A stretch of 64,000 nucleotides of DNA, taken from the IMG/VR virus record IMGVR_UViG_2537561875_000003; one strand, 5' to 3'. This stretch comes from a virus. Its lineage: Duplodnaviria > Heunggongvirae > Uroviricota > Caudoviricetes. Shown here piece by piece: positions 1 through 51,184 of the stretch. The position numbers were made by a program, and so were the translations under genes. Within the stretch, counting starts at the first letter, position 1; the number at the start of each line of letters is the position of its first letter. Below the pieces are notes generated by a model. That model had not been told where the DNA came from and made no database searches. It saw only the letters and a list, made by a program, of their open reading frames with translations.

Positions 1-1081
1 CAGACATGTGCTCCTGCGACTGTGCCTGCAGGGCATCCAGACCGTTAAGCGGGGCGTTAACGAACTCAACCGTTTCTGGCTGGGTAGGGTTGTTGTCTTT
101 AGCGAATGCGCCACGGTTATCGCGGCATCGGTTGAAGACATCAAGCCTTGCCAGAAGACTATCTGCCCCACCGCCCTGCAGAATCGTGCTCATATTTGTT
201 CCGATTACCGGAACTGAGAACGAGTGAATCATGTCGCTGACGCTGTCGCGGGTACGAAGCCAGTTATTGACGTATGGCTCGGCAATCTGCGAGAGAGACA
301 GGCCGCGGAAGTTATACGATGCTTTCAGCAGATCAGGGACCTGCCGCGAGACGAAATCAATCATCCGGCTTGCATGTACGGTCCGGCCCATGACAAACCA
401 CTGCGTCGGCTTGTAGAAATCCGGGCTCAGCGGGTTGTCGGAGTTATAAATACCCGGATAGGTCCAGATAGGCTCGATGACCCTGAACCCCTGCAGGCTG
501 CCTTTCGTGATTTTCTTGTCGCTCATGAAGAGCTTCGATTGCAGCTCGTTGTCGTCCATCCATGCGGAGATTCCCCGCGGCGAACGAACGTCGATGTAAA
601 TCTGGCCGCCGCCGAAGTAACCGTCATGCTCTGCGGCTTCTTTAAAGCGCTCGCGCACCTTAAACCGCTTCATGGCCTCTTCGAGCTGCTTCACCCGATC
701 TGCCTTGTCTTCATCGCCGACAGTTTTGAGCTTTATCCATTTGCGGGTCATTTCTTCCGCGATGGTGCCGACCATCTTGCGATATTCAGGCTTCTGCGCC
801 AGCGTGGCCAGATACGGGTAGCCGGGAAAGCTATCAAAGTCGCCGTAGCCGTAACCGCCATACGCAGCATTGAGATCATCGTAAGGCGTGGAGTCCATTG
901 CCAGAATGGCGCTTTTGATAGCCTCGGGGATCACCCCTTTCGGCGGCTCGTAGCGCTGAAACTCTCTTTTCGGTAATGCACGGACTTCGGCCACGGCCTC
1001 TGGTCTGATCCCGACCTTCGGTGCTTCCGGTTCTTTTGCCGGCTCAGGCGCGGCGACTTCTTTCTTTTTAAACCACCACAC
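1..1081 (-). CDS. Portal protein, N-terminal part only (gene runs off the left edge). GTG start at 1081.
   Basis: Manual translation of the minus strand gives an open frame from the GTG at 1081 to the window edge (VWWFKKKEVAAPEPAKEPEA...YDDLNAAYGGYGYGDF...). It lies immediately downstream of terminase large, the usual position of the portal. It is absent from the ORF track because it is incomplete. Confidence 0.5.
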   Translation of the reverse strand, partial: MWWFKKKEVAAPEPAKEPEAPKVGIRPEAVAEVRALPKREFQRYEPPKGVIPEAIKSAILAMDSTPYDDLNAAYGGYGYGDFDSFPGYPYLATLAQKPEYRKMVGTIAEEMTRKWIKLKTVGDEDKADRVKQLEEAMKRFKVRERFKEAAEHDGYFGGGQIYIDVRSPRGISAWMDDNELQSKLFMSDKKITKGSLQGFRVIEPIWTYPGIYNSDNPLSPDFYKPTQWFVMGRTVHASRMIDFVSRQVPDLLKASYNFRGLSLSQIAEPYVNNWLRTRDSVSDMIHSFSVPVIGTNMSTILQGGGADSLLARLDVFNRCRDNRGAFAKDNNPTQPETVEFVNAPLNGLDALQAQSQEHMS

Positions 1082-2758
1082 TTAAATTCTCCTGAGTTGA
1101 TTCGGGTCGATAACCATCGGCTGCGGGCCGGAAATCAGGTTGTCGTCGATTGCGTCCATCCAGGTATCAAGGATGTCGTCGTTGTCGTGACTGTCATCAG
1201 CGGAGAAAGCAGCGCATTCCGTCATCGCCGTCAGCACCCACTCCGTTGAGCCTGCGATCGTGCCGTCCTCGTAGAAGATTCTGGAAAGCTTCTGTCCGTC
1301 GTCGGTGTGCGTCGCGGGGACAAACACTTTCCCGGTTTTGATTTGAGGGATGACGTTAAGGCAGCGAACGAGCTTGTTCTGCCCGGTGCCGCGCGGGATT
1401 TCCCTCACCGGGATGGCGAGTTGCCCGGGCGTCTGGCTACGTTTTTTCAGCGTGGTGATGAGGCCCTGTCCGGCTTGCTTCTCTTCAATGGCCATATGGC
1501 GGAGCGGCATAACCCGCATGGAGCCAGACAGGCGCCATTTTTCCCAAACCTCTTCCGCTTTCTTCAGGAGGTCTTCCGGGTCCCACCGTCCGCGAACGAC
1601 GTCGATGATGTACAGGTTCCCGTCCACGCCCATGCCAGCCAGCGTAAACACGGTGTAATCCAGCCAGTCCTCTACCTTCCCGCTGTTCGTATCGACGTAC
1701 ACGGCGCGGTGCGTAAGCTTCGGCAGCGTGGTGTACGTTCTGAACCAGCTGGTGTCGATAATCCCGCCAGTCAGCGCCATCGGGTTTTGCTGGTATTGCG
1801 ACAGGAAGGTATAGCGATCCTTTTCCCACAGTTGCAGGAGGTCGTTAACGTCTTCCATCTGCGGCCAGTAGGACCAGTAGCGAACACCACCAACGACCAC
1901 AGAATCGGTATCTTTGACCGTTTCCCAGCAAAGCGAACGCCATGGCTCATCGAGCGACTGGATGTACTTCTCGTCGATCATGGCCGGTATGGCGACATGG
2001 TGAAACGGCACCCCCATTCCGCCGGCAAGCATGAATCCCGTTGCATCGTCGGTGTGCAGGCGCTGCTGAATGCTCACAAACGGAGTCGGGTGCTCTTTCG
2101 ACTTATCGCCGCGGCGTGATCGAATGGTGTTTACCAGCAGCGTATTCGCGCTTTTGCGTCGGGACTCGCTGAGCATGTCCACCGGCTTGTTGTAGTCGTC
2201 CAGCATCACCATGCCGGAGAACTCTGGTCCGTAGTAGCCACCACGACCCCCGGTGATCTGCCCGTTGCTTGAGCGCGATACTGTCTGGCCTATAGAGCGC
2301 CCTCGCTCGTCCTTTATCTCCCACTCTTCTGCCTGGTTGACACCAAACGAGCAGGGCCAGAACTCCTGATACTCACGGCTGGCGATAATGTCGCGGGTGC
2401 GCCGGCTGTTACGCTTTACCAGCGTGTCAGCAAAAGAGATATTCAGGTTGCGAAAGCGTTTAAGCCGCTTCTCCTGCACCAGGGCGTTGACATACGCCGG
2501 GAAGTGGATGGAGAAGAACTCAGTTTTCGTACCGCCTGGCGGGATGTTGATAATCAGGTTTCGCGGGACAAGGCGCCCGGCAAGCAGATCATCAATTTTC
2601 GAAGCCATCAGGCGGTGATGCCAGTTAACCAGCAGCCGATCACCCTGAATCAGCTCGAACCATATCCGGGTGAAGTTCAGGAATGACTTCGTAGACTTTG
2701 AACGGATGATCACGCGCTCCGGGAATGACAGGTCATCCCATTCGATAATTCCGCTCAT
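1082..2758 (-). CDS. Terminase large subunit
   Basis: 558 aa with ATPase and C-terminal nuclease acidic motifs (DDILDTWMDAIDDN). It is preceded by a small terminase gene. Confidence 0.85.
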   Translation of the reverse strand: MSGIIEWDDLSFPERVIIRSKSTKSFLNFTRIWFELIQGDRLLVNWHHRLMASKIDDLLAGRLVPRNLIINIPPGGTKTEFFSIHFPAYVNALVQEKRLKRFRNLNISFADTLVKRNSRRTRDIIASREYQEFWPCSFGVNQAEEWEIKDERGRSIGQTVSRSSNGQITGGRGGYYGPEFSGMVMLDDYNKPVDMLSESRRKSANTLLVNTIRSRRGDKSKEHPTPFVSIQQRLHTDDATGFMLAGGMGVPFHHVAIPAMIDEKYIQSLDEPWRSLCWETVKDTDSVVVGGVRYWSYWPQMEDVNDLLQLWEKDRYTFLSQYQQNPMALTGGIIDTSWFRTYTTLPKLTHRAVYVDTNSGKVEDWLDYTVFTLAGMGVDGNLYIIDVVRGRWDPEDLLKKAEEVWEKWRLSGSMRVMPLRHMAIEEKQAGQGLITTLKKRSQTPGQLAIPVREIPRGTGQNKLVRCLNVIPQIKTGKVFVPATHTDDGQKLSRIFYEDGTIAGSTEWVLTAMTECAAFSADDSHDNDDILDTWMDAIDDNLISGPQPMVIDPNQLRRI

Positions 2759-2759
2759 A

Positions 2760-3245
2760 TCAGTCCAGCCCTTCTAACCTTCCCTCCAGCTTCTGCTGGG
2801 CCTTCGCATAGTCTTCAGCGGTGTACGTCACCTGATTCAGCGGGCCGCCGTCTTTACCGGTCAGCTCGACCTTTTGCTTGTTGCTGTAGGCATCGCCAAC
2901 CTCTTTTGCCGCCTGCTCCAGTAGCTGAGCTGTCATGCCGAGGTTTTTCATACCTTCGGCAGTCGTAGACATTCGCTGAAGGACGCGTAGGCGATAGGCT
3001 TTGTTGGCGATCGGGATGTCGGAGATTTCGTTGAGGAATCGGTCTCGGGTGCAGTTGAAAAGGTCTACCCATTTTTGAGCCAAACCTTTCCCAGCCACCT
3101 TTGTCGGGTCATGCGATGCCACCTGCTGGCGCGTCACCTGAACCTTAAATTCTTTTTGTACGGACTCGACGATTTGGGATGGCGTATCAAAGCAAGCGAG
3201 CTCTTGAACGATAAAGGCTCTCACTTCTGGTTTTAGTGCAGCCAT
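2760..3245 (-). CDS. Terminase small subunit (DUF2280-like)
   Basis: 161 aa, immediately upstream of terL and coupled to it. N-terminal MAALKPEVRAFIVQELACFDTPSQI is typical of lambdoid terS. Confidence 0.55.
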   Translation of the reverse strand: MAALKPEVRAFIVQELACFDTPSQIVESVQKEFKVQVTRQQVASHDPTKVAGKGLAQKWVDLFNCTRDRFLNEISDIPIANKAYRLRVLQRMSTTAEGMKNLGMTAQLLEQAAKEVGDAYSNKQKVELTGKDGGPLNQVTYTAEDYAKAQQKLEGRLEGLD

Positions 3246-3275
3246 AACCCACCGTCCGTATAAAGCAGTATAAAA

Positions 3276-3935
3276 TCACGCCAGTTTCAGCATGCACGTC
3301 CCGCAAGCTCTGGCAACATCGATATGAGCAACCTCCGCCGGCCTGTTCGCCGCATCCACCATTTCCTGCACATCTTTGCTGGCGCCGTAACGCCGGACCA
3401 CTCCGACGAATTCCTCGACATCATGGCCGCGAAGTTTGAGCACCGGCATCCCGGTCTCTTTGTTGAACTTCGGCGCGCCATAGTCATCGGTAGCCTGGGC
3501 GATGTGGTAAAGCTCATGCTCTACCAGTGCGCAGAACTCCAGATCGTTACATTGCTCGCAGTAGTCAGCAGCCAGGGTGATGATGAACTTCGGTATGCGA
3601 CCGAACCATTCATGCATCTGTTGCTCCATTCGGGCTTTCTGCCAGCCGCCGGCGCGCATCATTACCTGCTCACACTGGCCAAGCACAATGCGGCCGCTTT
3701 TGGCGAATGAGCCAGAAGCCCACAAGAACGCCACATCAGCGTCGAGCAAGTGCGCATGGTCAGGGTTATGGATTCGGCCGTCTTCGGAGAGGATGTTCTG
3801 ATTTACCCATTCCCCGATTTCGGCAGCAGGGATCAGCCGGGTATACGGCAGCCAGTTTTCGCCAGTGAAGTTGACGGGAGGGTATGGTCTGCGATTGTCA
3901 TTTTCAGTCATGCAGAACAATCCTCTGGAAACCAA
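3276..3935 (-). CDS. Phage protein with an HExxH (HELYH) metallopeptidase-like motif
   Basis: 219 aa ORF between the lysis cassette and terS; carries an HELYH motif. Confidence 0.4.
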   Translation of the reverse strand: MVSRGLFCMTENDNRRPYPPVNFTGENWLPYTRLIPAAEIGEWVNQNILSEDGRIHNPDHAHLLDADVAFLWASGSFAKSGRIVLGQCEQVMMRAGGWQKARMEQQMHEWFGRIPKFIITLAADYCEQCNDLEFCALVEHELYHIAQATDDYGAPKFNKETGMPVLKLRGHDVEEFVGVVRRYGASKDVQEMVDAANRPAEVAHIDVARACGTCMLKLA

Positions 3936-4232
3936 ACATACTTGCTCGGTAATTTCGACATCAAGGCATCAACAAACTTATATAAAACTCTGTCAATGGC
4001 GCTTTTAATGCACCATTTGCAGATCTTTATAATTACGCCTGCTTGCCAATTACAGGGCCAATCCGGATGCACTTCTTAGTGAGCCAACCCCAGCGCAAAA
4101 GCACTGAAAGAATCAGCAGCGGCTTCATGTATGGGCGAAGCGTAATTTCCGCCATTAGGATTCCAGTGGTGCGCATATGGCTTACCTCGTTGTGACATTA
4201 TCGAGCCACCTCTTGAAGTGGCTCTGTAATGC

Positions 4233-4508
4233 CTATAGCAACGGACTGCACAAAGCGCCGGTGTTGCGAGGACGGCGGCCGAAAATATTAACTTGCTCGC
4301 GCACGCTTTCACTGCACATTCGCTCTACGATTCGCCAGTCAGCCTTTTCAGGCGAGGCTTTCACGGAGACTGCGGAAATGACCCGCTCCACCACCCGGCG
4401 CAACTTACTAACCGCTCGGCTCACCGAGATGTCTTCAAACGAAATGGTAGTGATAATTGCCCAGCAAGCCGAGATGAAGCGCGAACACATATGACGCAAA
4501 CTGACCAT
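4233..4508 (-). CDS. Hypothetical protein
   Basis: 91 aa. Strong RBS (CAGGAGTAAATCC-ATG) upstream of the ATG at 4508. Confidence 0.35.
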   Translation of the reverse strand: MVSLRHMCSRFISACWAIITTISFEDISVSRAVSKLRRVVERVISAVSVKASPEKADWRIVERMCSESVREQVNIFGRRPRNTGALCSPLL

Positions 4509-4543
4509 GGATTTACTCCTGTTTGTTGATTTTCAGTGCCAGG

Positions 4544-5029
4544 TTATTTAAGGCACTGCGTGGTGATGTATTCCTGCAGCGCCCTCAGGGCTGTTTGGTC
4601 GCTGAGGATTCCGGACCGGATACCGAGAACGTTTCGTCCAGCAACTGCAGAGAGTTCGACGGTGGCATCATCGCCCACGCTGGCGGCGCCGGCGGTTTGG
4701 GTTGCGGCTGACACTGGACACTTGCCTTTGACGAGCACCCGACCACCATTATCAAGCTTGCGCTGCAGAGCATCATTTTCAGCTTTTGCATCGGCTAATT
4801 CCTTCGTGTATTTAGCATCAAGCGCTGCGACGTCACGCTGTCGAGTCTGCATGTCCGCGATCGTGTCATTTGCCAGGCTGAGTTGCTCAGTCACTTTGTC
4901 CCGCTGCCTTTTGAACTCGGTGGCATTGCTGTGGTAGTGACTGGCCAGCCAGCCGAGGCTGACTATCAGGCAGATCACAATGGCGCTGATAATGGCGGTT
5001 AACCGGCTCATTTCTGCCCCCACAAACAA
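4544..5029 (-). CDS. Rz-type i-spanin
   Basis: N-terminal TM, coiled-coil body, position after the endolysin, and an embedded +1-frame lipoprotein ORF. Confidence 0.75.
4585..4791 (-). CDS. Rz1-type o-spanin (embedded)
   Basis: 68 aa; lipobox LMVVGC; proline-rich mature part; fully inside the Rz gene in another frame. Confidence 0.7.
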
Positions 5030-5517
5030 ACTTCACGCTCAATCTCGCGGCGAGTTACCAGGCCTTTCCACTGTTTGCCCTTGGCATAGGTCCAGCGGCG
5101 CAGCTGATCGCAGGCACCTTTCTGGTCGCCCTGGTTGATTTTGCGCAGCAGCGTGGAGGCCTGGAAGTTACCAGCACCGACGTTATAGGCGAATGAGTAG
5201 AGGGCCCCGCGCATTGTTACGGGGATCGGCTTCTGGATGTACGGATCAATCTGGCGGGCGACGGTGTTCAGGTCTTTATTGAGCAGCGCACGGCATTCAG
5301 CCTCGGTGTACTTCTTGCCGAGCATGATGTCTTTGCCAGTGTGGCCATAGCAGACAGTCCAGACGCCTACCACATCCTGATAAGGGTTGTATCGCACACC
5401 TTCAAGACCATCGTTACCGGTTGGGCCGGTGATGAGCGCAGAGGCAATGGCTATGGCGCCACCACCGCCGGCGATCACGCCAATCAGTTTTTTCCTCATT
5501 GATGGCGTCATGCTCAC
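5008..5517 (-). CDS. SAR endolysin (GH24 T4-type lysozyme with N-terminal signal-anchor-release domain)
   Basis: Gly/Ala-rich N-terminal TM ([20 protein letters not shown]) followed by the GH24 catalytic E/D/T region ([23 protein letters not shown]). Confidence 0.75.
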
Positions 5518-5828
5518 CCCTGTGTATCATTTGCGATCCGCTTCAAGGCCTCGGTTACCACTTCGGCTGAAGCCGGGCGGTCACTTCCTGGCTTGTCGGA
5601 GACATCAGCCAGATAACTGGCCAACAGCTGCGTGCGTTTTTTCTCTTCATCCAGTCGCTCTCGCTCTTCTTTACGCTTTGCGTAATACGTCTTGATTGTG
5701 AAGAAGGCAGAGATCAGGGCGCCAATGATGAAGACATAATCCTGCAGACTCAGGACGGAAAAGATACCAAGCAAGGCTGACCACCAGTAAGGCAGATTGT
5801 GACCATCGGTTGGGTTCATACGTTGCAT
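5514..5828 (-). CDS. Holin (class II, two TM)
   Basis: 104 aa with two hydrophobic helices and a charged C-terminus, directly upstream of and coupled to the endolysin. Confidence 0.55.
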
Positions 5829-6096
5829 CTCTCACCTCCGATAATGTTCGGGGTGCTATCTGTAGTCAGTAAAAGGTTCAGGGCCGTCGGGCTGATTTAC
5901 CAACAAAGCGTCGAGGGTGATTCCCGCGACCCTGAAAATAAAAAACCCGCTCAAGGCGGGAAGAAATACCAAGGGTAAAAGCGACGGCGGTAGCCGTAAT
6001 GGTCCCAAGGTAGAGGGATATGGTGGCCTGTTGCGTTGCGCCAACAACGCCCTGATGGATTGGATTATGAGCCCGTCATCAGGTCAGGCCATTATC

Positions 6097-38504: not shown

Positions 38505-38909
38505 TTACTTTGCATTAGCATCATCCGCGTCACGAATGAGATCAAGTGCCTGCTTCAACAGCCGGGAATGCACGGGGCCATAGATCGCTTCAACCTGTTC
38601 GGTGTCATCGACAGTAAAGACGGGCTGCAGGTCGGTATCCAGCAAAATATCGATGAAAAGCGTGACGTCGGCCCGCATCGTGCGGAAGGCTCGTTCTGAA
38701 GGGGTCAGTTCTGGTGCCTCTGGTGCTTCCTGCCCTTCCGGTGGTTTGGGTTGTTCCGGGCTGGCGATCCCCTGCCAGCGAATCCAGGCTTCTGCTGAAG
38801 GCTCACGAATGATGACTTTGGCGTTATCCCACTCCGGAACGGAGACTTCTTTTTTACGAAAGCCCGCCATCGGTGCCAGTGCCAGTGCTTTAAGACTCGG
38901 TTTTGACAT
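38505..38909 (-). CDS. Tail assembly chaperone G-like
   Basis: 134 aa acidic protein between the major tail gene and the tape-measure gene. Confidence 0.6.
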   Translation of the reverse strand: MSKPSLKALALAPMAGFRKKEVSVPEWDNAKVIIREPSAEAWIRWQGIASPEQPKPPEGQEAPEAPELTPSERAFRTMRADVTLFIDILLDTDLQPVFTVDDTEQVEAIYGPVHSRLLKQALDLIRDADDANAK

Positions 38910-38939
38910 TAATTTTATCGCCGGTCTCCCGGCGCTCCG

Positions 38940-39656
38940 TTAATTGATGGTGACGGTGCAATCAGAAGAAGTGATCACAGTGCCATCGGCATCAGTAACC
39001 ACGCAGGAATAAACCCCGGCATCACCGGATACAGCGCTGGCTTTCGTAAACGTTGCGCTGGTCTGGCCGCTGACCGTCGAGGTGCCCTTTTTCCAGACGT
39101 AGGTATAAGGTGCCGTACCGCCCTGGACGACTACGCCCATAGTCAGGGCGCTTCCTGCCGCGACCGTTTGAGACGCCGGAAGGTCAGTAGCAAACGACAG
39201 AACTCCTGGGGCGTTAATATTGGTGGGTTTACCTTTCAGACGCAGCGAGAACGTTGCAGCAACAACACCGTTGGTTTGAGAATCCCAGGTGTGCTGACGT
39301 ACCTCAGCGCGCATCAGGAATCCATTACCAGACGGGAAAATAACCTTAAACCCATAAACCCCGTCGTTATCATATGCTTCACGAAGTGCATCCTGCGCCG
39401 GGTTGCGGTAGAAGTTACCGGAAAGTGACATTTCAGACGGAGCAGGAAGGCCGTTGATATTTTCCGTTTCATCCGAACAGAGCGTTGTCACGTCAATATC
39501 GTTTTTCTGACCAGCGGTAAAGCTTGCCTGTTTGATAGTGCAACTCAGGTTTAACCAGGTTGCGGTATCCAGCTCTGCCGCAGTGACCGGCACAGAGGTA
39601 ATCATTACTACCGTTTTTTGGGCACGTTCAAATAGTGCTGACATCGCAGCCTCCAT
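38940..39656 (-). CDS. Major tail protein with a C-terminal Ig-like (Big_2) domain
   Basis: V-like N-terminal region plus a C-terminal Big_2-like segment (...YTYVWKKG...GVYSCVVTDADG). Confidence 0.7.
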   Translation of the reverse strand: MEAAMSALFERAQKTVVMITSVPVTAAELDTATWLNLSCTIKQASFTAGQKNDIDVTTLCSDETENINGLPAPSEMSLSGNFYRNPAQDALREAYDNDGVYGFKVIFPSGNGFLMRAEVRQHTWDSQTNGVVAATFSLRLKGKPTNINAPGVLSFATDLPASQTVAAGSALTMGVVVQGGTAPYTYVWKKGTSTVSGQTSATFTKASAVSGDAGVYSCVVTDADGTVITSSDCTVTIN

Positions 39657-43594: not shown

Positions 43595-44902
43595 CTAAGC
43601 GGCCTGTTTCAGCGGAGATTGTTCAAAGGAAATGTCGGGGAATACGTGGTTATGCAGCTCTCGCAAAGCCAGCGCCTGAACGGCAGGGTTGCTGCTTTCG
43701 AGATTTTTCAGTTGCGTCAGGTTGAGCTGAACGGTGTAAATATCGCCCCCTTCTATCGGCGGCATGTTCTCAAGACGGCGAACGTCATTGCGAGACATCC
43801 AGCCATTCTGCAGTGCGCTGGTATAGTAAGCAGCACGACCAGCGCTATCGGCGCGCAGAAGCCCTTCAACGGAGAACTCAGCAAACAAGTCCTCATCACT
43901 GTTCAGAAGACAACGCGATATTTCCTGCTCAATATTGACCAGGAGAGGACGCAGGGTATGAGTCAGGAACAGCATGTTCATCCCTTCAAGACTCGAAGCC
44001 CAGCTGGATTGTTTTGTCGTATGGCCGACCATAAATGGCGGTACGCGAAACCAGCGACAAATTTCCTCAATACTGAATGAACGGCTTTCAAGGAGTTGCG
44101 CGGCCTCCGGGTTCATAGTGACATTCTGGTAAGTCAGTTCATTTTCCAGAACCATCAGTTTCCCGGCGTTTTTAGAACCAATAAAAGACTGAAGGTTTTG
44201 ACGCAATCTTTCTCGCTGTTCCTTATTAAGCGCCGTTTTTGAAGACAGGAAACCGGTACTTTGCAGGCCATTTTCGAAGATTTTTGCCGCGGCTTCATCA
44301 ACCGACATAGCAGCGCCGAAAACGTCAACCCCGGCCATTGTCGGCATCATCCCGCACACACCATCAAGACCAAATCCGCGGATATGCATCATCCGGTCTA
44401 CTGGAATGATCCGCTTAACGCTATTTTCCGTGTATGTATACTGTAACTTCCCGCTATCGAGTCGCTTTACAACCATATTCTGCGGAAGTAACGGCACCAG
44501 CGAAACCAATTTGCTGCCGATATATAGCTTCTCGACAAATGCATTACCACGCAGGCAAATACTGGCCACAATCATCAACATGAAACGGGAAGGGGTCATT
44601 TCCGGGTTAGGACGCCTGCATAATATCTGGTAGGCGGGATTGTTCTGGGCCAGCTTTCGCGATCCATCAGCCTGCCGCTCGTAAATTTTAAGCGGAAGCG
44701 TGGAAACTGACTCACTTAAGAGTCTTACGCACGCCCAGACAGCAGAAAGCCGGATAACTTTGTCAGCGGTAACCACTTTTCCGCTACTGCTGGTTCCGTA
44801 CCACTCCCGCCAGAATTCACCGGTCGTCAGGCTTATGGGAACACCAAGCCAGTTTAAAAGAGCGCTCTTAACGCGCCCTGGTTGCTGTTTATTCTTAGCC
44901 AT
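43595..44902 (-). CDS. Portal protein (HK97 family)
   Basis: 435 aa after terL. Confidence 0.85.
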   Translation of the reverse strand: MAKNKQQPGRVKSALLNWLGVPISLTTGEFWREWYGTSSSGKVVTADKVIRLSAVWACVRLLSESVSTLPLKIYERQADGSRKLAQNNPAYQILCRRPNPEMTPSRFMLMIVASICLRGNAFVEKLYIGSKLVSLVPLLPQNMVVKRLDSGKLQYTYTENSVKRIIPVDRMMHIRGFGLDGVCGMMPTMAGVDVFGAAMSVDEAAAKIFENGLQSTGFLSSKTALNKEQRERLRQNLQSFIGSKNAGKLMVLENELTYQNVTMNPEAAQLLESRSFSIEEICRWFRVPPFMVGHTTKQSSWASSLEGMNMLFLTHTLRPLLVNIEQEISRCLLNSDEDLFAEFSVEGLLRADSAGRAAYYTSALQNGWMSRNDVRRLENMPPIEGGDIYTVQLNLTQLKNLESSNPAVQALALRELHNHVFPDISFEQSPLKQAA

Positions 44903-46644
44903 CAGATACCCACTATGATCGGATCGTCAAAAAAGCCCTCTATATCGCCATCATCAGGCTCATAACCTTCTGCAGCACCAATTGCCATCGCCGACGCAAC
45001 CACACCATCTATTCGACCAGTACTCTTTTTCTTGGCGAATATGCGGTTTTCTTTTTGGTCGGCTTCGGTTACGGCGGAAGCAGCGTTCCATCGGAGGCAG
45101 GGGTTTGTTTTAATAATGATTACGCCATCATCGAGCATCTGTTCAAAAAGTTCGATGGAATGAGGCATCCACAGTCCGGAATCCTGCGCCTTGTAGTATC
45201 CCTGCCCGTGAGGTATCAGCGGTACTGATACAGAAGCGCTCTCTAATTCCGGCTCAAGATATTTTATGCGGTACTGGTCGAAGGCGATCGCCTTGATATC
45301 GAACAACATGGAAAGATCAGCAATGCGCTCAGCAACAAAGCCATATTTCACCGCCTTTCCGGGAGTGGTATGAATATGGCCTCCCCGTTCCCATGCGTCG
45401 TAAGGTACGCGGTCTGTTTTCGCTCTATCCAGCAAAGTATCTTTTGGTGTCCAGAACTCCACCAGCAGCTTTCTTTTTTTAGGGAAAAAGAGCGCCAGAG
45501 ACGTAAGGTCGCGAGTTCCTGAAAGGTCCAGGCCGCCATAACATTCTTCTCCCTGCAGCTCCTGCAGGTCAAAGTCCTCTTCGCACCCCATCCACACATC
45601 GCTACTCATCCATGGGTTATCGGCATCCACCCACTGACAGAAGTTTAACCGCCGAACAATGCTTTCCTTCGACGGCATCCCCCGAGCCTGAGTAACCTGC
45701 TCACGCAGGTAGCGATCGGTAAAAGTATGACCGAGAGAGGGGTTTGCTTTTTTCCAGCAGGACTCGTCCTTGAATGGGTCTTCTCCTTCGTCCAGGGAGC
45801 AAATGAAAGAAAAGAAACTGTCATCCTCAATCGAGCCTTCGGCAACTTTACGCCCATACTCGTGATAGTCGTAGCAGACGCTGGTTTTGTCGTGGCCGCT
45901 GTTAGTGATCATGAAAATCAACGCCTGGCGACGACCTTTCGTCCCGGCGCGCATCATTTCCACAACCTGGTTGTTTTTGTGCTCGTGAATTTCGTCAATC
46001 AGTGCACAGTGTGGGCGTGGCCCTGACTGCCCATCATCCGAACTGATAGGCCGGAAAAATGAGCCGGTCTGAAGAAATGCAAGGTTCCACTCTTTCCCGG
46101 CACCGCCTGATTTATTTATTCGCTGTGCTAACGCAGGGGACTGATCCACCATCGCGACAGCATCACGAAAAAGGATCATGGCCTGGTCTTTTTTCGTTGC
46201 TGCTGCATATATCTCGGCACGAGGCTCCTTATCTGCTGTTAGACAGTAAAGCCCCACTCCGCCAGCCAGTGGTGATTTGCCGGAACCCTTACCAGATTCA
46301 ACGTACACCATGCGAAATCTACGATAACCATCCGAGTTCTTCCAGCCGAATATCGACCCTACAATAAAGCACTGCCACGGTAGCAGGTTGAAGGGTTTAC
46401 CTTCATGCTCACCACCGTTGAGCTTCAGTACCTTGGCAAAAAAGTCGATGGCGCGCTGCGCCGCTGCAACATCCCATACCAACCCGCGAGCATGGCAGGA
46501 TTCCAAATCTTTGAGATGTCGCTTACAGGCATTCCTGATGTCAGGCCCGGCAATTTCTTTGCCGGAGTCTACATCCCGCGCATATTGCGTGGCGGGATCA
46601 ACCGAAGAACTGGTTGAGCGGGTCTTCTTCTTTTTCTCCACCAT
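44902..46644 (-). CDS. Terminase large subunit
   Basis: 580 aa with Walker A (VESGKGSGKS) and a C-terminal RNaseH-like nuclease domain. Confidence 0.9.
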   Translation of the reverse strand: MVEKKKKTRSTSSSVDPATQYARDVDSGKEIAGPDIRNACKRHLKDLESCHARGLVWDVAAAQRAIDFFAKVLKLNGGEHEGKPFNLLPWQCFIVGSIFGWKNSDGYRRFRMVYVESGKGSGKSPLAGGVGLYCLTADKEPRAEIYAAATKKDQAMILFRDAVAMVDQSPALAQRINKSGGAGKEWNLAFLQTGSFFRPISSDDGQSGPRPHCALIDEIHEHKNNQVVEMMRAGTKGRRQALIFMITNSGHDKTSVCYDYHEYGRKVAEGSIEDDSFFSFICSLDEGEDPFKDESCWKKANPSLGHTFTDRYLREQVTQARGMPSKESIVRRLNFCQWVDADNPWMSSDVWMGCEEDFDLQELQGEECYGGLDLSGTRDLTSLALFFPKKRKLLVEFWTPKDTLLDRAKTDRVPYDAWERGGHIHTTPGKAVKYGFVAERIADLSMLFDIKAIAFDQYRIKYLEPELESASVSVPLIPHGQGYYKAQDSGLWMPHSIELFEQMLDDGVIIIKTNPCLRWNAASAVTEADQKENRIFAKKKSTGRIDGVVASAMAIGAAEGYEPDDGDIEGFFDDPIIVGI

Positions 46645-47062
46645 CCACTTTCACCTTCGTTCTGGCGGCCGGAGTCAGACCGAATTCAACCAGGTAACTT
46701 TTAAAACGTCGATCAGCATCCGCCAACATTGCTACTGCCGGGTTAGCCTTAATCAAAAAACCGCCCTCGGTCTGCACGGTGTAAGTTCGCCCCTCGTCAG
46801 CAATAGTCAGGCGAAGCTGCAGAATGTCGGCGTAAATATCGCAGAGTCGTTCGAGCGCCAGCGTATCGGCAATGGTTAAAATGCCCATGCCATCCAGCAG
46901 CACGGTCAGCTTCCCCCACGCCACCTTTCCCCAGTCAGTGAGGTGCTCTGGAGGGCTTGGTATTTCTCGCGCTGGCGATGGTTCTTTGTCATTAAGTTTG
47001 CGTTTGCCCGGGTTGCCGGTAACCACTTTGAGGTGGGTCGGTTTCGGGCGTCGTCCTGCCAT
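46598..47062 (-). CDS. Terminase small subunit (P27 family)
   Basis: 154 aa overlapping the terL start. Confidence 0.7.
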   Translation of the reverse strand: MAGRRPKPTHLKVVTGNPGKRKLNDKEPSPAREIPSPPEHLTDWGKVAWGKLTVLLDGMGILTIADTLALERLCDIYADILQLRLTIADEGRTYTVQTEGGFLIKANPAVAMLADADRRFKSYLVEFGLTPAARTKVKVDGGEKEEDPLNQFFG

Positions 47063-47164
47063 CGGAACCTCCCGGAAAAAAACTTTTCATTTCGCGGTTG
47101 TGCACAAAAAGGACTGGCGGCGGTCATTTGGGTTCGAGGTTCTGAACTTTTGACCCGCCCCTCC

Positions 47165-47255
47165 CCCTCAGATGAGAATTGATATCATTTGATTCAAAAT
47201 GATTTCATTTGCAATCATTCCCCCGCAAAAAATGAGATTAAATATCATTTAAACC
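47165..47255. promoter_or_regulatory. Candidate cos/terminase-binding region with two 21-bp direct repeats (atgagaWtRatatcatttRa) and ATCATTT repeats
   Basis: atgagaattgatatcatttga and atgagattaaatatcatttaa lie between HNH and terS. Confidence 0.4.
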
Positions 47256-47586
47256 AATGTGAGTTAGGATCCAGGGGCATTCCGCTCTCATCACAACCGA
47301 TGACGGTGCCACGCTTCTCCATTCGCTGCTTCGTTGAGTCGTGGTGCTGCTTACACAACCCTTGCCAGTTCTTCCGGCTCCAGAAAAGCTTTTGCGCCTT
47401 CGCTATTTCCTGGCTGTCACCAGAGCGCAGAGCCTCTTTCAGTTTGTGCGGGATGATGTGGTCAACCACCGTTGCCGCTGTCACCCTGCCTTGCTCCTGG
47501 CACATGACGCACAAGGGGTGCGCACGTAGGAAGATAAGACGCTCTCGGTCCCACTTGCTGCCATAGATACGGGGCTCTTTGTTCAC
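47245..47586 (-). CDS. HNH endonuclease (packaging-associated)
   Basis: Cys4/His motif (HPLCVMC...VDHIIPH...CKQHHD). Typical HNH-terS-terL arrangement. Confidence 0.75.
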   Translation of the reverse strand: MNKEPRIYGSKWDRERLIFLRAHPLCVMCQEQGRVTAATVVDHIIPHKLKEALRSGDSQEIAKAQKLFWSRKNWQGLCKQHHDSTKQRMEKRGTVIGCDESGMPLDPNSHWFK

Positions 47587-47641
47587 GTAATCGCTCCTTG
47601 AGCATTATCACAGGCACTCAGCGAGTGCCTGCTGTAATGCC

Positions 47642-47887
47642 TTAGCTCGCCTGTTCTGCGATGGTATCAAACAGCGCCAGCGCCTCGGTCGACTCCTGAA
47701 CTGCTTTGATGGTCCGCGCCACCACTTCGGATTCAGTTGTCACGCGACTGTACTGCTGGATGAACAGCTGATATTTGAGCTGGCTATCCTGGACGAACTC
47801 AATCGCCTTAGCAGCGGCCGCGGTGTCGTAGTTCAGGGTGGAAAGCAGATTCAGTCGAATCTGTTCTGCCGGTGTGATCTCTGCCAT
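47642..47887 (-). CDS. Hypothetical protein
   Basis: 81 aa. Confidence 0.35.
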   Translation of the reverse strand: MAEITPAEQIRLNLLSTLNYDTAAAAKAIEFVQDSQLKYQLFIQQYSRVTTESEVVARTIKAVQESTEALALFDTIAEQAS

Positions 47888-48179
47888 GTTTTACCTCTGT
47901 GCGATGTGGGGAGCTTATCGAAGCCACTCGGCAGAATGGCTCCTGTAATGCTTTAGCTGCGGTGCTCCATTATTAGGAATGCCCCGCTACGCTTGTTATA
48001 TCCGAAATGTTACCTAAACTAACTTATGACTTTGCTCTGCCATGACAAAGTCTGCCGTTCTACCCGTGAGCTTATGGATGAGCCACTCTCAAGCCTTCCT
48101 GGCTCTCAGTTTTATTCTCAACCAGTAGAAAATAAACCAACTTCGTGGCTACAATCAGTCATTGGCTGGCTGTACAGCA

Positions 48180-48217
48180 CCCCGTAGCTTTGGGATTTCC
48201 TCCACGGGGTTTTTTAT
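48180..48217 (+). terminator. Intrinsic terminator on the plus strand (ccccgt...acgggg plus T6) in a noncoding stretch
   Basis: Stem at 48180-48185 / 48204-48209 followed by TTTTTTAT. Confidence 0.4.
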
Positions 48218-48284
48218 AACACTTAAGGCAGATGCTTCGGTTTAGCATTATCGAAGCCCCTTAGCTCAGGAGCTTCTGTAATGC

Positions 48285-48485
48285 CTACTGCTGGGCCCTG
48301 TGTTCGTAACGGGAAATGGTCTTGCCGTTTGCGTTCATCACATAGGCCACCTCCCCCTGCTTCAGGAACACGTTCTGGTCCATTCCAGACACTGAGATAC
48401 TCTGCTGATTGGGGTTGAAACCAACGCTCAGGCCGCTATGGATTTCTTCGCCGCCGCCAGGCGACATCACTTTTACTGTCAACAT
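48285..48485 (-). CDS. Small hypothetical protein (66 aa)
   Basis: AGGAGAAGAAGC-ATG RBS at the internal Met. Confidence 0.4.
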   Translation of the reverse strand: MLTVKVMSPGGGEEIHSGLSVGFNPNQQSISVSGMDQNVFLKQGEVAYVMNANGKTISRYEHRAQQ

Positions 48486-48611
48486 GCTTCTTCTCCTACT
48501 TCTGGTAATAAAAATGCCGCACGGTGGCGGCACTGATCGAATATCAGGATGTTGCAAAAAGTAACGCTCGCTTATCTTTGAGTTTTCACACAAAAAGTAA
48601 GGAGCGTTTTA

Positions 48612-48863
48612 ATGTCCGTTGATAATCAGAAACTTTTACAGAAAATCGTCGAGGAGCTGGAGTCACTCAAAGGTGAGACCGAGATCTTATCTATCGCTGT
48701 ATCCTGCCTCTTCAGCGAGTTGCCAACAGATAGCGCCAGTAACGTGAGGGCTAAATTCACAAAATCCGTGAATGAACTAAAAACAGCGGCAGCAGCTAGT
48801 CGGAGGAGGTCGCGTCGCGACGTATATTCAAAAGCTCTGTCAATGATGACCAAGCCTGAGTAA
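48612..48863 (+). CDS. Hypothetical helical protein
   Basis: AAGGAG RBS; 83 aa. Confidence 0.45.
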   Translation: MSVDNQKLLQKIVEELESLKGETEILSIAVSCLFSELPTDSASNVRAKFTKSVNELKTAAAASRRRSRRDVYSKALSMMTKPE

Positions 48864-49068
48864 TTTCGGCATCAAGGTTGCTAAGGAATACGCTTCTGGC
48901 ATCCTGCGTGTTCCTTTCCTCTTCCGGCTTTAATGCTGCCGGCACTGCAACAGAGATGTTGATCGGCAGGTTAAGGCTTCTCAGTTCATCCTTGAGCAGG
49001 CGCACCTTTTCGATGACTGAATCAATGGCGTTGTCATCAATTTCAATTACGAGTTTTCGTTCTTTCAT
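48796..49068 (-). CDS. Hypothetical protein
   Basis: GGAG RBS at the internal Met; converges on and overlaps the 48612-48863 gene. Confidence 0.4.
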   Translation of the reverse strand: MKERKLVIEIDDNAIDSVIEKVRLLKDELRSLNLPINISVAVPAALKPEEERNTQDARSVFLSNLDAEITQAWSSLTELLNIRRDATSSD

Positions 49069-49200
49069 AGATACTCCGTTCCGGGCATAAAAAGTCCCGC
49101 TATTGCCAGTCATCACGATTGAAAGTTGCCACAGAGTAGCGGGCAATATTTCTCCGCTATACTGTTAAATCGCCGAGCTCAACAGAACAGGAATGAAAAT

Positions 49201-49485
49201 ATGATCGATCATTACTATGTAACTCATGCTCAACTCCTGGCGCTGAGAAACGTTGTTGCTTTTATTGTGCAAACGATGCCTGAAGAACAAAAAGAGAGTG
49301 TCCTTCAGGTTTTGAAAAAATTTGCTGAAATAGAATTAATGGATGGTATCGACGCGCCGCCTACGAGTGATATCACCCCGAAAACAGTTGAGAAGTTAAA
49401 TAAAGCCTACAAGGCAATCTTCACTGACATTATCGATCTTTCAACGCCTGGCAGGAAATCTGCTTCAGCAAGCTACCTGCAATAG
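49201..49485 (+). CDS. Hypothetical protein
   Basis: Start at MIDHYY with AGGAATGA RBS. Divergent from 48796-49068. A weak terminator hairpin follows at 49508-49537. Confidence 0.4.
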   Translation: MIDHYYVTHAQLLALRNVVAFIVQTMPEEQKESVLQVLKKFAEIELMDGIDAPPTSDITPKTVEKLNKAYKAIFTDIIDLSTPGRKSASASYLQ

Positions 49486-49575
49486 CTCTCGACCTTATCT
49501 CCATGATGGCCAGAACGTTCTCGTCTGGCCCTTTCTCAAGTTTGCTCAGTCGAAATTCAATATTCTTTGCCTTGG

Positions 49576-49806
49576 TCATCGCGTAACCCTGCCGGTTAGT
49601 TGCGGGCAGTTAGCCTGCACTGATTTGTTTTGCGCCAGGATGTCACGCTTGGTCTGCTTATCCAGCACGTCGATATCGTGGTCGGTCAGGTAGATGACCC
49701 TCACCCAGCTGCAGGCCGTATCAACGACTACCGGGGCGGGTAAATCTTTCGCGCAGCTCGCGATCAACATCGTCATCGCCCATACGCTTAACGTCTTCCT
49801 GTACAT
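49576..49806 (-). CDS. o-spanin (Rz1-like lipoprotein), overlapping the i-spanin
   Basis: Lipobox LIASC; 76 aa. Confidence 0.6.
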   Translation of the reverse strand: MYRKTLSVWAMTMLIASCAKDLPAPVVVDTACSWVRVIYLTDHDIDVLDKQTKRDILAQNKSVQANCPQLTGRVTR

Positions 49807-49996
49807 CGCTTGCCTCTTTCACAACTTCCGCCTTACGTTCTGCCGCGGCGACGGTGGCGGCGGCGTTCTCTTCGGTACGCTGCTGATCGGCTTTGGCTTC
49901 TGCCTTACTGGTCCCGCGTGAATGACCAATGCCGAACGCACCAGCGATAGCACCCAGGATGACAACCACCAGCCCAGCAATAATTTCAAAGCTCAT
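49721..49996 (-). CDS. i-spanin (Rz-like)
   Basis: N-terminal TM plus a charged coiled coil. Confidence 0.6.
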   Translation of the reverse strand: MSFEIIAGLVVVILGAIAGAFGIGHSRGTSKAEAKADQQRTEENAAATVAAAERKAEVVKEASDVQEDVKRMGDDDVDRELRERFTRPGSR

Positions 49997-50340
49997 TGCT
50001 GCGGATCCTTCAGTTCGTCGGCCTTCTCTTTCAATGCTGGCTGGCGCACGTATTGCGATAGCACGGCCAGCACCACCAGCGCCGGGCTAATCAGTGCAAC
50101 GATGTTTGGCGGCAGGATATTTTTGATATCCGGCGGCAGCATCGCCCAGGCGTGCAGCGCAGCATCCGGGAACGACTGCGCCCATACACCAACCAGCGCG
50201 CCGATAGCTCCCAGCTTTACAGACCACGTTTTCAGCAGCAAGCTGGCATGCCCTACGAACTCCAGCCGGGTATATTTGCGAAGAAGTAACAGAACGAGCA
50301 CAGCCACCAGCACAAGCAAAGCGAAAATAATCATCTTCAC
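49993..50340 (-). CDS. Membrane lysis-accessory protein (LysB/antiholin-like)
   Basis: 115 aa with multiple TM segments, between endolysin and spanins. Confidence 0.4.
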   Translation of the reverse strand: MKMIIFALLVLVAVLVLLLLRKYTRLEFVGHASLLLKTWSVKLGAIGALVGVWAQSFPDAALHAWAMLPPDIKNILPPNIVALISPALVVLAVLSQYVRQPALKEKADELKDPQQ

Positions 50341-50876
50341 ATGACACGCTCCTTAACCCAGCCGTAGAGAAAATCCTCGTTGGCTTCGCGGCCCTCCGCC
50401 AGTTCGAGGTATCTGGCACCCTGGCTGCAGTTCAGCGCACGCAACAGAACCTGTTCACCCTCTTTCCCGCGGGCTGAAAGGTATCCCTTAAGCGCGGTGA
50501 TGGTTCGGGGGCCAATGGCGCCATCCGGGATCAGATCGGGGTATAGCTTCCCGCGCATGTTCAGAGCAGTGAGCCAGCGCTGGAAAAACTTACTGGCGAC
50601 GCTGGGCCCCATGTTCACGCCAGTGTCGCAAAGCTCATCCGCCAGTAACGTAGACAAACTCGCTACCTGGTCGAACCGGGGGCCGGTCCAGTAATCGCTC
50701 AGCAGGATTTGCTTTGCTGTTTCCCTTGGCAGGTTTCGCATATCACCGGTGTAGCCATGCGCACGGGCGGTGGTTTGCGTGATGCCCCAGCGGGTTGGCC
50801 CGCCTTTATCAGAGGGGTGATCGACATAACCACCCTCTTTGCCGAGGATCCCCTCGATAATCTGGTCTGCTGTCAT
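50337..50876 (-). CDS. Endolysin (GH108 N-terminal domain plus peptidoglycan-binding domain)
   Basis: GH108 motifs (EGGYVDHPSDKGGPTRWGIT). Confidence 0.75.
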   Translation of the reverse strand: MTADQIIEGILGKEGGYVDHPSDKGGPTRWGITQTTARAHGYTGDMRNLPRETAKQILLSDYWTGPRFDQVASLSTLLADELCDTGVNMGPSVASKFFQRWLTALNMRGKLYPDLIPDGAIGPRTITALKGYLSARGKEGEQVLLRALNCSQGARYLELAEGREANEDFLYGWVKERVM

Positions 50877-51184
50877 GGCGCCTTGACTCCGGTAATGCGC
50901 TCCCAGAAATAGGTCAAAGCAACAGAACCCATTGCCCCGCTAATCCCGGAAGTGGCCAGTATCATGTAAATGCTCAGTCCGCTTTCAATGCTCACCAGGC
51001 CAGCAATAACGCCGGTAAACCCTGAAACCACCATTTGGGCAAGAGCATTGATCAAGCTCCATGTTGCCTTGCTCTGCTTCACATCTATCAGGTAGCGGAC
51101 AAGTCCACCCCAGCAAGCAATAATCAGCAGAACCAGCCAGGACATCCCGGCAATGCTCTCTTTGTCTTGCATACGTTTAGCCAT
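50873..51184 (-). CDS. Holin
   Basis: 103 aa, about 3 TM, upstream of and coupled to the endolysin. Confidence 0.6.
   Translation of the reverse strand: MAKRMQDKESIAGMSWLVLLIIACWGGLVRYLIDVKQSKATWSLINALAQMVVSGFTGVIAGLVSIESGLSIYMILATSGISGAMGSVALTYFWERITGVKAP

Follow-up and report, generated by a model that had tools for sequence, protein, structure and literature searches.

The window analyzed here, a 64,000-nucleotide stretch of viral DNA (IMG/VR record IMGVR_UViG_2537561875_000003), contains four copies of a short structured element, which folds into the same interrupted hairpin on one strand only and recurs between the lysis and terminase genes of temperate phages infecting Enterobacterales. 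We tentatively regard the element as an intercistronic hairpin for RNA processing and 3'-end stabilization, with RNase III as the likeliest enzyme, a reading that we consider a serious possibility rather than a probable one. A covariance model of the element (R1) placed the copies as follows.

47599-47643 (core 47602-47640), minus strand: hairpin copy 1; 63.6 bits, E 3e-17
47910-47954 (core 47913-47951), minus strand: hairpin copy 2; 50.7 bits, E 3e-13
48242-48287 (core 48245-48284), minus strand: hairpin copy 3; 59.2 bits, E 7e-16
4192-4235, minus strand: hairpin copy 4, in a second prophage and outside the training set of the model; 44.1 bits, E 3e-11

Copies 1 to 3 had been noticed in a reading of the sequence alone, made without database searches, and the model recovered all three where that reading had put them; copy 4 had been overlooked. 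The motif CTGTAATGC occurs five times in the window against 0.38 expected, and none of 100 shuffles reached five. The sequence-only reading had described each copy as a separate small GC hairpin accompanied by two conserved boxes. Both elements of this description are present, but the hairpin is not a separate one: an inverted-repeat search found the conserved flanks, GCATTA and TAATGC, to be complementary to each other and to constitute the two arms of one helix. The whole unit is a single hairpin of 38-44 nt across the family and of 38-40 nt in copies 1 to 3. Read along the minus strand, each copy comprises a stop codon, (G)GCAUUA, CA, a variable stem with its loop, GA and UAAUGC. A 6-bp lower stem (GCAUUA/UAAUGC) thus leads through a 2x2 internal loop (CA/GA) into a variable upper stem, which in copies 1 to 3 has 9-10 bp and an apical loop of 3-8 nt; copy 2 bears a one-base deletion in the 3' arm (UAA-GC). 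The minus strands of copies 1, 2 and 3 fold with -27.2 kcal/mol (z -4.0), -21.1 kcal/mol (z -2.9) and -24.5 kcal/mol (z -3.5), respectively, and the plus strand of copy 2 does not form this hairpin. The common fold, obtained by folding for copies 1 to 3 and by model R1 for copy 4, is restricted to the minus strand; in copies 1 to 3 the plus strand lacks it because several of the pairs are G.U.

We scanned IMG/VR with the exact pattern GCATTACAG-N16-32-GATAATGC, which matched in at least 120 contigs. All family counts given below (cores, alignment, loci and flanks) are drawn from the IMG/VR matches listed. There were 87 distinct cores among them, 71 of which fold as the same hairpin with stabilities of -17 to -27 kcal/mol, while the remainder are unrelated chance matches. 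An absence of conservation in related phages had been named in the sequence-only reading as part of the outcome that would speak against the element, and covariation across such phages had been proposed as a check; the same hairpin was found in more than 100 IMG/VR phage contigs, and the covariation is clear. In an alignment of 55 distinct sequences (A1), in which pairs were counted on a fixed structure, 97.7% of the cells are paired and 7 of the 10 upper-stem pairs vary on both sides. The covariation score was 0.379, against 0.148 in shuffled alignments (0 of 500 shuffles reached the observed score) and 0.03-0.10 in slid registers. The six lower-stem pairs are fixed by the search pattern, and the pair counts are uninformative for that part of the helix. 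On the other hand, sequences found with the covariance model vary in the lower stem, and some of them compensate while keeping the CA/GA loop (GUUAUUG/CAAUGAC in HK97, GUAUUG/CAAUAC in locus L101 and CCAUUA/UAAUGG in locus L064). A lower stem of 6-7 bp, a 2x2 loop and an upper stem of 9-11 bp are shared by 74 of the 81 unique hairpins. Lower stem and internal loop are almost invariant in sequence, and the upper stem keeps its length and pairing with its sequence free.

The pairs of the upper stem also tell the strands apart. G.U pairs and A.C mismatches occur there in a ratio of 95:7, whereas a transition in a duplex palindrome would give both equally; thus, one specific strand has been selected to fold. 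The energy filter applied in choosing the sequences dropped only 2-3 family-like ones and cannot account for this ratio. We accordingly rejected a cruciform or duplex palindrome as the selected form. A likeness of the apical UUC...GAG to a tRNA T-arm was dropped as well, since conservation is lacking at the positions by which a T-loop is defined.

The hosts of the phages bearing the element are confined to Enterobacterales. Named carriers are phi80, HK97, phiP27, ST64B, Fels-1, cdtI, mEp390, Pectobacterium ZF40, Edwardsiella EPP-1 and many Klebsiella phages. An element of this kind had been called unusual in HK97-like late operons by the sequence-only reading, and this view was not borne out, as a copy is present in HK97 itself, in phiP27, phi80 and ST64B, and in over 100 further phage contigs. 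In phi80, one copy directly follows the stop codon of rha and is unannotated, though the record lists terminators and inverted repeats. phiP27 has one copy upstream of its annotated cos site, flanked by the stop codon of L33 and the HNH gene L34. A good copy lies at 38859-38893 in HK97 (L252, NC_002167) and a weak one past the stop codon of p61. Both HK97 copies fall in a 418-nt gap between p61 and the HNH gene gp74 (38637-39053) that is annotated as non-coding; this gap contains at least one unannotated small open reading frame (ORF), which starts at approximately 38958 in the record. Whole-genome scans of phi80 and ST64B detected no further copy, and none was present in lambda between 44000 and 48502. 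In a scan of a genome collection with a 17-base pattern over 596 Gb, most matches were due to chance, as expected; among species-representative genomes, the family fold was found only in matches from Serratia, Citrobacter, Mangrovibacter, Leclercia, Yersinia, Pantoea and Kluyvera. A copy 100% identical to the commonest enterobacterial variant was also found in 'Elizabethkingia phage EKP1' (OM284015.1, 35844-35883); this is odd for a host of the Flavobacteriia and suggests mis-assignment of the host or contamination.

The element was seen only in the accessory interval between the lysis and terminase genes, always in the sense orientation and in 1-3 copies. In 61 of the 104 listed loci, an endolysin homologue is encoded upstream on the strand of the element, and in 52 TerL is encoded downstream on that strand; the reversed same-strand order occurs in none of the 104. 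Many of the listed loci possess two or three co-oriented copies approximately 310-350 or 640-750 nt apart, which bracket single small genes; the lone opposite-strand match among these arrays (locus L057) is interpreted as a backward reading of the palindrome. Of the genes nearest to the element, upstream and downstream alike, about 80% share its strand. Among 100 same-strand upstream genes, 57 end between -3 and +6 nt from the element, and the next start codon usually comes 20-55 nt past it. In 9 of the 98 unique upstream flanks, the element is preceded, at a distance of 3-4 nt, by the T-run of an intrinsic terminator of a related family. These terminators (AAGCCACC-loop-GGTGGCTTTTTTAATG) have covarying stems of their own and were seen upstream of the element in loci L025 (4257-4286), L044 (6127-6156), L048, L102 and L105; terminator and hairpin may travel as a composite unit.

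The genes on the two sides are highly diverse. Proteins encoded next to the element fell into 31 clusters upstream and 42 downstream, which include DUF2560, HNH, Rz, Rha, small terminase and small membrane proteins. No gene in the fetched flanks proved to be a universal partner: of the 104 loci, 38 contain DUF2560, 42 contain HNH and 49 have neither. DUF2560 and HNH proteins were therefore rejected as universal binding partners, being common but not present in all carriers. The upstream flanks of 131 instances of the element form 68 clusters and the downstream flanks 79, joined in 96 combinations; a single upstream flank is joined to as many as 12 downstream flanks, and a single downstream flank to 10 upstream flanks. 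Pairwise identity of the flanks is approximately 0.25 right to the border of the element on one side and returns to that value immediately past the border on the other. As this random identity is reached exactly at both edges, the element marks mosaic junctions. The window itself behaves likewise, with BLAST homology to other phages breaking at the copies (hit H2 ends at 47951, and hits H18-H20 span exactly 47601-47954). Short-homology recombination at the element is suggested because the same sequence of approximately 40 nt is common to unrelated genes. The variable stem is near-identical in pairs of instances with a common upstream flank, and 0.4-0.8 identical in pairs with a common downstream flank, the latter a tentative value from 24 pairs in which one cluster is dominant. 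The variable stem thus tracks the upstream flank, and the hairpin seems, tentatively, to be part of the upstream cassette.

Rfam 15 had no match at the copies at E up to 5 (positions 46000-50000 searched), and no intrinsic terminator was called there, the 3' flanks being neither T-rich nor furnished with a U-tract. The element is annotated in none of the GenBank or RefSeq records examined. It was not found in the searchable literature either, where motif strings gave chance matches only and a Pas-sRNA preprint contained nothing relevant; this negative does not extend to PMC10690425, a bulk catalogue that lists over 10,000 candidate phage RNAs. Elements of this general kind are known, as intercistronic hairpins of phage mRNA and as linkers at module junctions, and this family is absent from Rfam 15.

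The sequence-only reading had offered a promoter, an antitermination site and an RNA-processing site as functions. The last of these fits best, and we adopt it with reserve: structure, strand specificity, position, distribution and junction behaviour are shown by the data, and we infer the RNA nature of the folded strand, its cleavage or stabilizing action and the identity of the enzyme. On this reading, the Q-dependent late transcript of temperate Enterobacterales phages would carry the element as a structured RNA acting in cis; each copy follows directly on the stop codon or intrinsic terminator that closes one cassette, with the next ribosome-binding site a few tens of nucleotides further on. 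A double-strand-specific endoribonuclease of the host, most likely RNase III, would recognize the interrupted helix of approximately 19 bp and cut at or next to the conserved CA/GA loop, approximately 10-11 bp below the apical loop and probably on the 3' side. The hairpin left at the 3' end of the upstream mRNA would block 3' exonucleases, and the packaging and head messages further down would no longer be coupled to those of the lysis and accessory genes. The recurrent sequence would at the same time offer short homology to phage recombinases, so that cassette exchange would arise as a by-product. A factor of the host is indicated because the carriers bear at least four types of small terminase (Terminase_4, DUF2280, Nu1-like and DUF1441) and yet are confined to Enterobacterales, and the linkage of the variable stem to the upstream flank fits a 3' appendage.

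The RNase III sites of phage T7 (R0.3, R0.5, R1.1, R1.3, R4.7 and R18.5) are the closest parallel. At these sites a single cut is made on the 3' side of the internal loop, and a protective hairpin stays on the upstream message. T7 sites and the element are both repeated intercistronic hairpins in a long polycistronic phage transcript; folding of the T7 sites showed an upper stem of 10 bp set off from a lower stem by an internal loop, as in the element, and each of the two has a lineage-specific consensus. Many element copies share the apex of R1.1 (CAUUC-loop-GAGUG), its U.G wobble included. The element accordingly displays the T7-type architecture, namely a hairpin of about two turns with an internal loop approximately 10 bp below the apex. 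In contrast, the T7 loop is asymmetric (ACUC/UAUGAU) and that of the element a symmetric 2x2 loop (CA/GA), and no sequence or structure similarity to the T7 site consensus (ACUCAAGGUC...GGCCUUUAUGAU) was found. The carriers differ from T7 also in being temperate phages that use the host RNA polymerase. As a precedent, the title of Daniels et al. (1988; reference 49 in PMC7547250) reports processing of lambda late RNA by RNase III in vivo.

Several observations weigh against the assignment to RNase III. A covariance model built from seven T7 RNase III sites (R2) misses the window copies at E up to 10, and the element model matches T7 R1.1 only locally (9.8 bits, E 0.75). Since the sequence searches were significant in neither direction, it is architecture and context that link the element to RNase III. 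Matches of the element model near T7 R3.8 and R18.5 were discarded, as they are different small hairpins in another register. No copy occurs in the prophages DLP12, Qin and e14 of MG1655, and the published RNase III maps of K-12 (PMC6212723) are consequently uninformative. The strict conservation of GCAUUA-CA / GA-UAAUGC exceeds the known need of RNase III and equally fits a sequence-specific binding protein. Finally, folded single-stranded DNA tolerates G.T pairs as well.

The strict conservation just mentioned leads to the alternative that the element is an operator for an RNA-binding protein of phage or host, which would read the lower stem and the CA/GA loop and regulate translation, decay or elongation of the neighbouring cistrons, with cleavage by RNase III not being the point. 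A near-invariant lower stem and loop beneath an upper stem that preserves its pairing only is a pattern typical of protein-recognized hairpins, and the sense orientation and fixed position fit this alternative too. We nonetheless judge it to be on the unlikely side: no gene in the fetched flanks is common to all carriers, the terminase types differ, no known RNA family matches, and the hairpin sequesters neither a ribosome-binding site nor a start codon.

The position directly past stop codons or terminators, the linkage to the upstream gene and the stability of the hairpins could also mean that the element is a passive barrier to 3' exonucleases, which would stabilize the upstream cistron with no specific endonuclease involved, its conserved sequence reflecting shared ancestry spread by recombination. 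Repetitive extragenic palindromes (REPs) and the bacterial interspersed mosaic elements (BIMEs) resemble the element in this regard, as they are imperfect palindromes just past stop codons and able to protect the upstream mRNA. REPs differ in occurring chromosome-wide in hundreds of copies and in being tied to RAYT transposases, whereas the element is limited to 1-3 copies in one prophage interval. Ancestry alone leaves unexplained why the CA/GA mismatches have never been repaired, although repair would make a better barrier, and why the upper stem is constantly 9-11 bp long. For these reasons, a purely passive role seems less likely again than an operator.

A site that acts in recombination at the DNA level, either as a folded strand like attC or as a linker in the manner of lambdoid phages, would have cassette exchange as its purpose. 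The diversity of flank combinations, the loss of identity right at both edges and the breaks of BLAST homology at the copies speak for such a site. Reportedly, the T4-type promoter-early stem-loop (PeSL) cassettes associated with Arbiol et al. (2010) and the lambdoid boundary or linker sequences associated with Clark et al. (2001) are short conserved regulatory hairpins. Like the element, these sequences border small accessory genes of a hyperplastic region, at places where mosaic breakpoints fall, and homology starts and stops at the short conserved sequence of the element as it does at a PeSL-like linker. The element differs from a PeSL in having no early promoter, in lying in the late operon of temperate enterobacterial phages, and in its conserved internal loop and clear covariation. 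The parallel with attC extends to a location at the 3' end of the cassette with which the hairpin moves, complementary conserved ends that make up a conserved base, an unpaired central spacer, a variable top, strand-specific folding and cassette junctions. However, the cores are GCATTA/TAATGC in the element and RYYYAAC/GTTRRRY in attC, the lengths are 38-44 nt and 57-141 nt, respectively, and the orientation of the element is locked to transcription. Neither R''/R' cores nor an adjacent intI was found, and no integron-type integrase is annotated in the MK422452 stretch (see below), the neighbourhoods examined or two whole phage genomes. Plain homology needs no hairpin, yet compensatory changes maintain the pairing; a role of duplex DNA leaves the strict sense orientation unexplained; and the arrays contain 1-3 units only. 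We therefore doubt that recombination is the purpose of the element, and hold this somewhat less plausible than a passive barrier.

A bolder version, which we consider improbable, is that an active, structure-specific system of cassette exchange recognizes the hairpin, which would be a phage counterpart of attC whose folded sense strand would be cut or recombined by an enzyme of phage or host. In temperate Enterobacterales phages, the interval from lysis to terminase genes would then be a dedicated and programmable slot for accessory and anti-defence genes.

The weakest alternative is that of the sequence-only reading, in which GATAAT is the -10 element of promoters driving each downstream cassette: although GATAAT is invariant and 12 of the 55 variants read as an extended -10 (TGTGATAAT), this is very improbable, as a consensus scan of both strands yielded no sigma-70-type promoter at any of the copies, the -35-like hexamer that fits best is approximately 22-23 nt away from GATAAT and not the 16-18 bp of a sigma-70 promoter, the TG is missing in most variants and the TGn extension confined to those with a G.U closing pair, convergent genes or non-coding DNA follow several copies, and covariation and the G.U/A.C asymmetry are irrelevant to promoter function but indicate selection on a folded single strand. 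The suggestion of a nut- or qut-like antitermination site fared no better. nut (boxA/boxB), HK022 put and qut sites are, like the element, cis-acting in phages and act on the transcript or RNA polymerase. In contrast, there is no boxA near the copies, the sole boxA-like match of the window being an unrelated one at 44863 on the plus strand; the 16-bp interrupted helix is far longer than boxB, and its fold is single and not the double one of put. The copies also lie far down the late operon, kilobases downstream of promoters and between the lysis and terminase genes, which is not the place of a lambda N-type nut site.

If the processing hairpin proposed above is real, it would be a common and so far unrecognized signal of post-transcriptional punctuation in many temperate enteric phages, including the laboratory standards phi80 and HK97 and the toxin carriers phiP27 and cdtI. 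The signal would sit at the passage from lysis to packaging in the late operon, where accessory genes accumulate, and would account for differing message stabilities among the genes of one long transcript. To annotators it would offer a positional landmark of the accessory slot, and the sharp mosaic junctions that lambdoid genomes have long been known to show would gain a concrete and testable basis in sequence. The family is in any case an RNA motif that is supported by covariation and missing from Rfam.

The genes around the copies in the window are consistent with the placement seen in the family. The window holds two prophage late regions, both on the minus strand (1-6000 and 44900-51000), one with a DUF2280-type small terminase and a phage metallopeptidase and the other with a P27-type small terminase and HNH; the hairpin occupies the same relative position in both. 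The segment 47000-49000 belongs to the late region of the Klebsiella HK97-like prophage, which is 99% identical to phage ST13-OXA48phi12.2 (MK422452). Along the minus strand, lysis genes and small hypothetical ones come first and are followed by a 66-aa ORF. Copy 3 separates this ORF from a stretch devoid of minus-strand genes, copy 2 separates that stretch from the DUF2560 gene, and copy 1 separates the DUF2560 gene from the HNH gene; a repeat-rich putative cos region and then the small and large terminase genes lie beyond. The features of this segment are as follows.

48534-48513, minus strand: intrinsic terminator upstream of the 66-aa gene (terminator scan)
48285..48485, minus strand: 66-aa hypothetical gene, its stop codon adjoining copy 3 (ORF list, annotation)
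47963..48241, no strand assigned: cassette separating copies 3 and 2, devoid of minus-strand genes (sequence, ORF list)
47642..47887, minus strand: DUF2560 gene, 81 aa, bracketed by copies 2 and 1 (Pfam PF10834, E 6e-20)
47245..47586, minus strand: packaging-associated HNH endonuclease gene, directly downstream of copy 1 (Pfam HNH; MK422452 annotation)
46598..47062, minus strand: terminase small subunit gene, at the downstream end of the accessory interval holding the elements (Pfam Terminase_4, E 5e-23)

Copy 1 begins 1 nt past the TAA stop codon of the DUF2560 gene, which in other phages is the commonest neighbour of the element on both sides (neighbour clusters). It is directly followed by a Shine-Dalgarno sequence (AAGGAG), and 12 nt separate its end from the GTG start codon of the HNH gene. 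Copy 2 lies 25 nt upstream of the ATG of the DUF2560 gene, and the first G of copy 3 overlaps the TAG stop codon of the 66-aa ORF. In the second prophage, copy 4 abuts the TAG stop codon of a 91-aa ORF (4233-4508), and downstream of it come a Shine-Dalgarno sequence and an ATG at 4175; on a larger scale, it lies between Rz (4544-5029) and the metallopeptidase, DUF2280 and terminase genes (3935..1082; Pfam).

The terminator at 48513-48534 (minus strand) sits within the late operon. Late transcription must therefore read through it, which is consistent with antitermination of the Q type.

The cassette between copies 3 and 2 had no match in Pfam or Rfam. It contains a convergent small ORF on the plus strand (48026-48187; 53 aa, or 37 aa in the MK422452 annotation), at the end of which a plus-strand hairpin with a T-run is found (48180-48216). 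A weak promoter-like site at 48126-48155 could give rise to an antisense RNA of approximately 55 nt. The junction sequence AAAAAACCCCGTGGAGGAAAT likewise follows copy-3-type elements in loci L001, L012 and L040.

Between the HNH and small terminase genes (47167-47265), there are 3-4 direct repeats of approximately 20-34 nt with a consensus of approximately AATGAGAWTNAATATCATTT, and beside them a short inverted repeat (47177-47190 / 47197-47210). Judged by their position, the direct repeats look like putative terminase-binding (cosB-like) repeats of the cos region.

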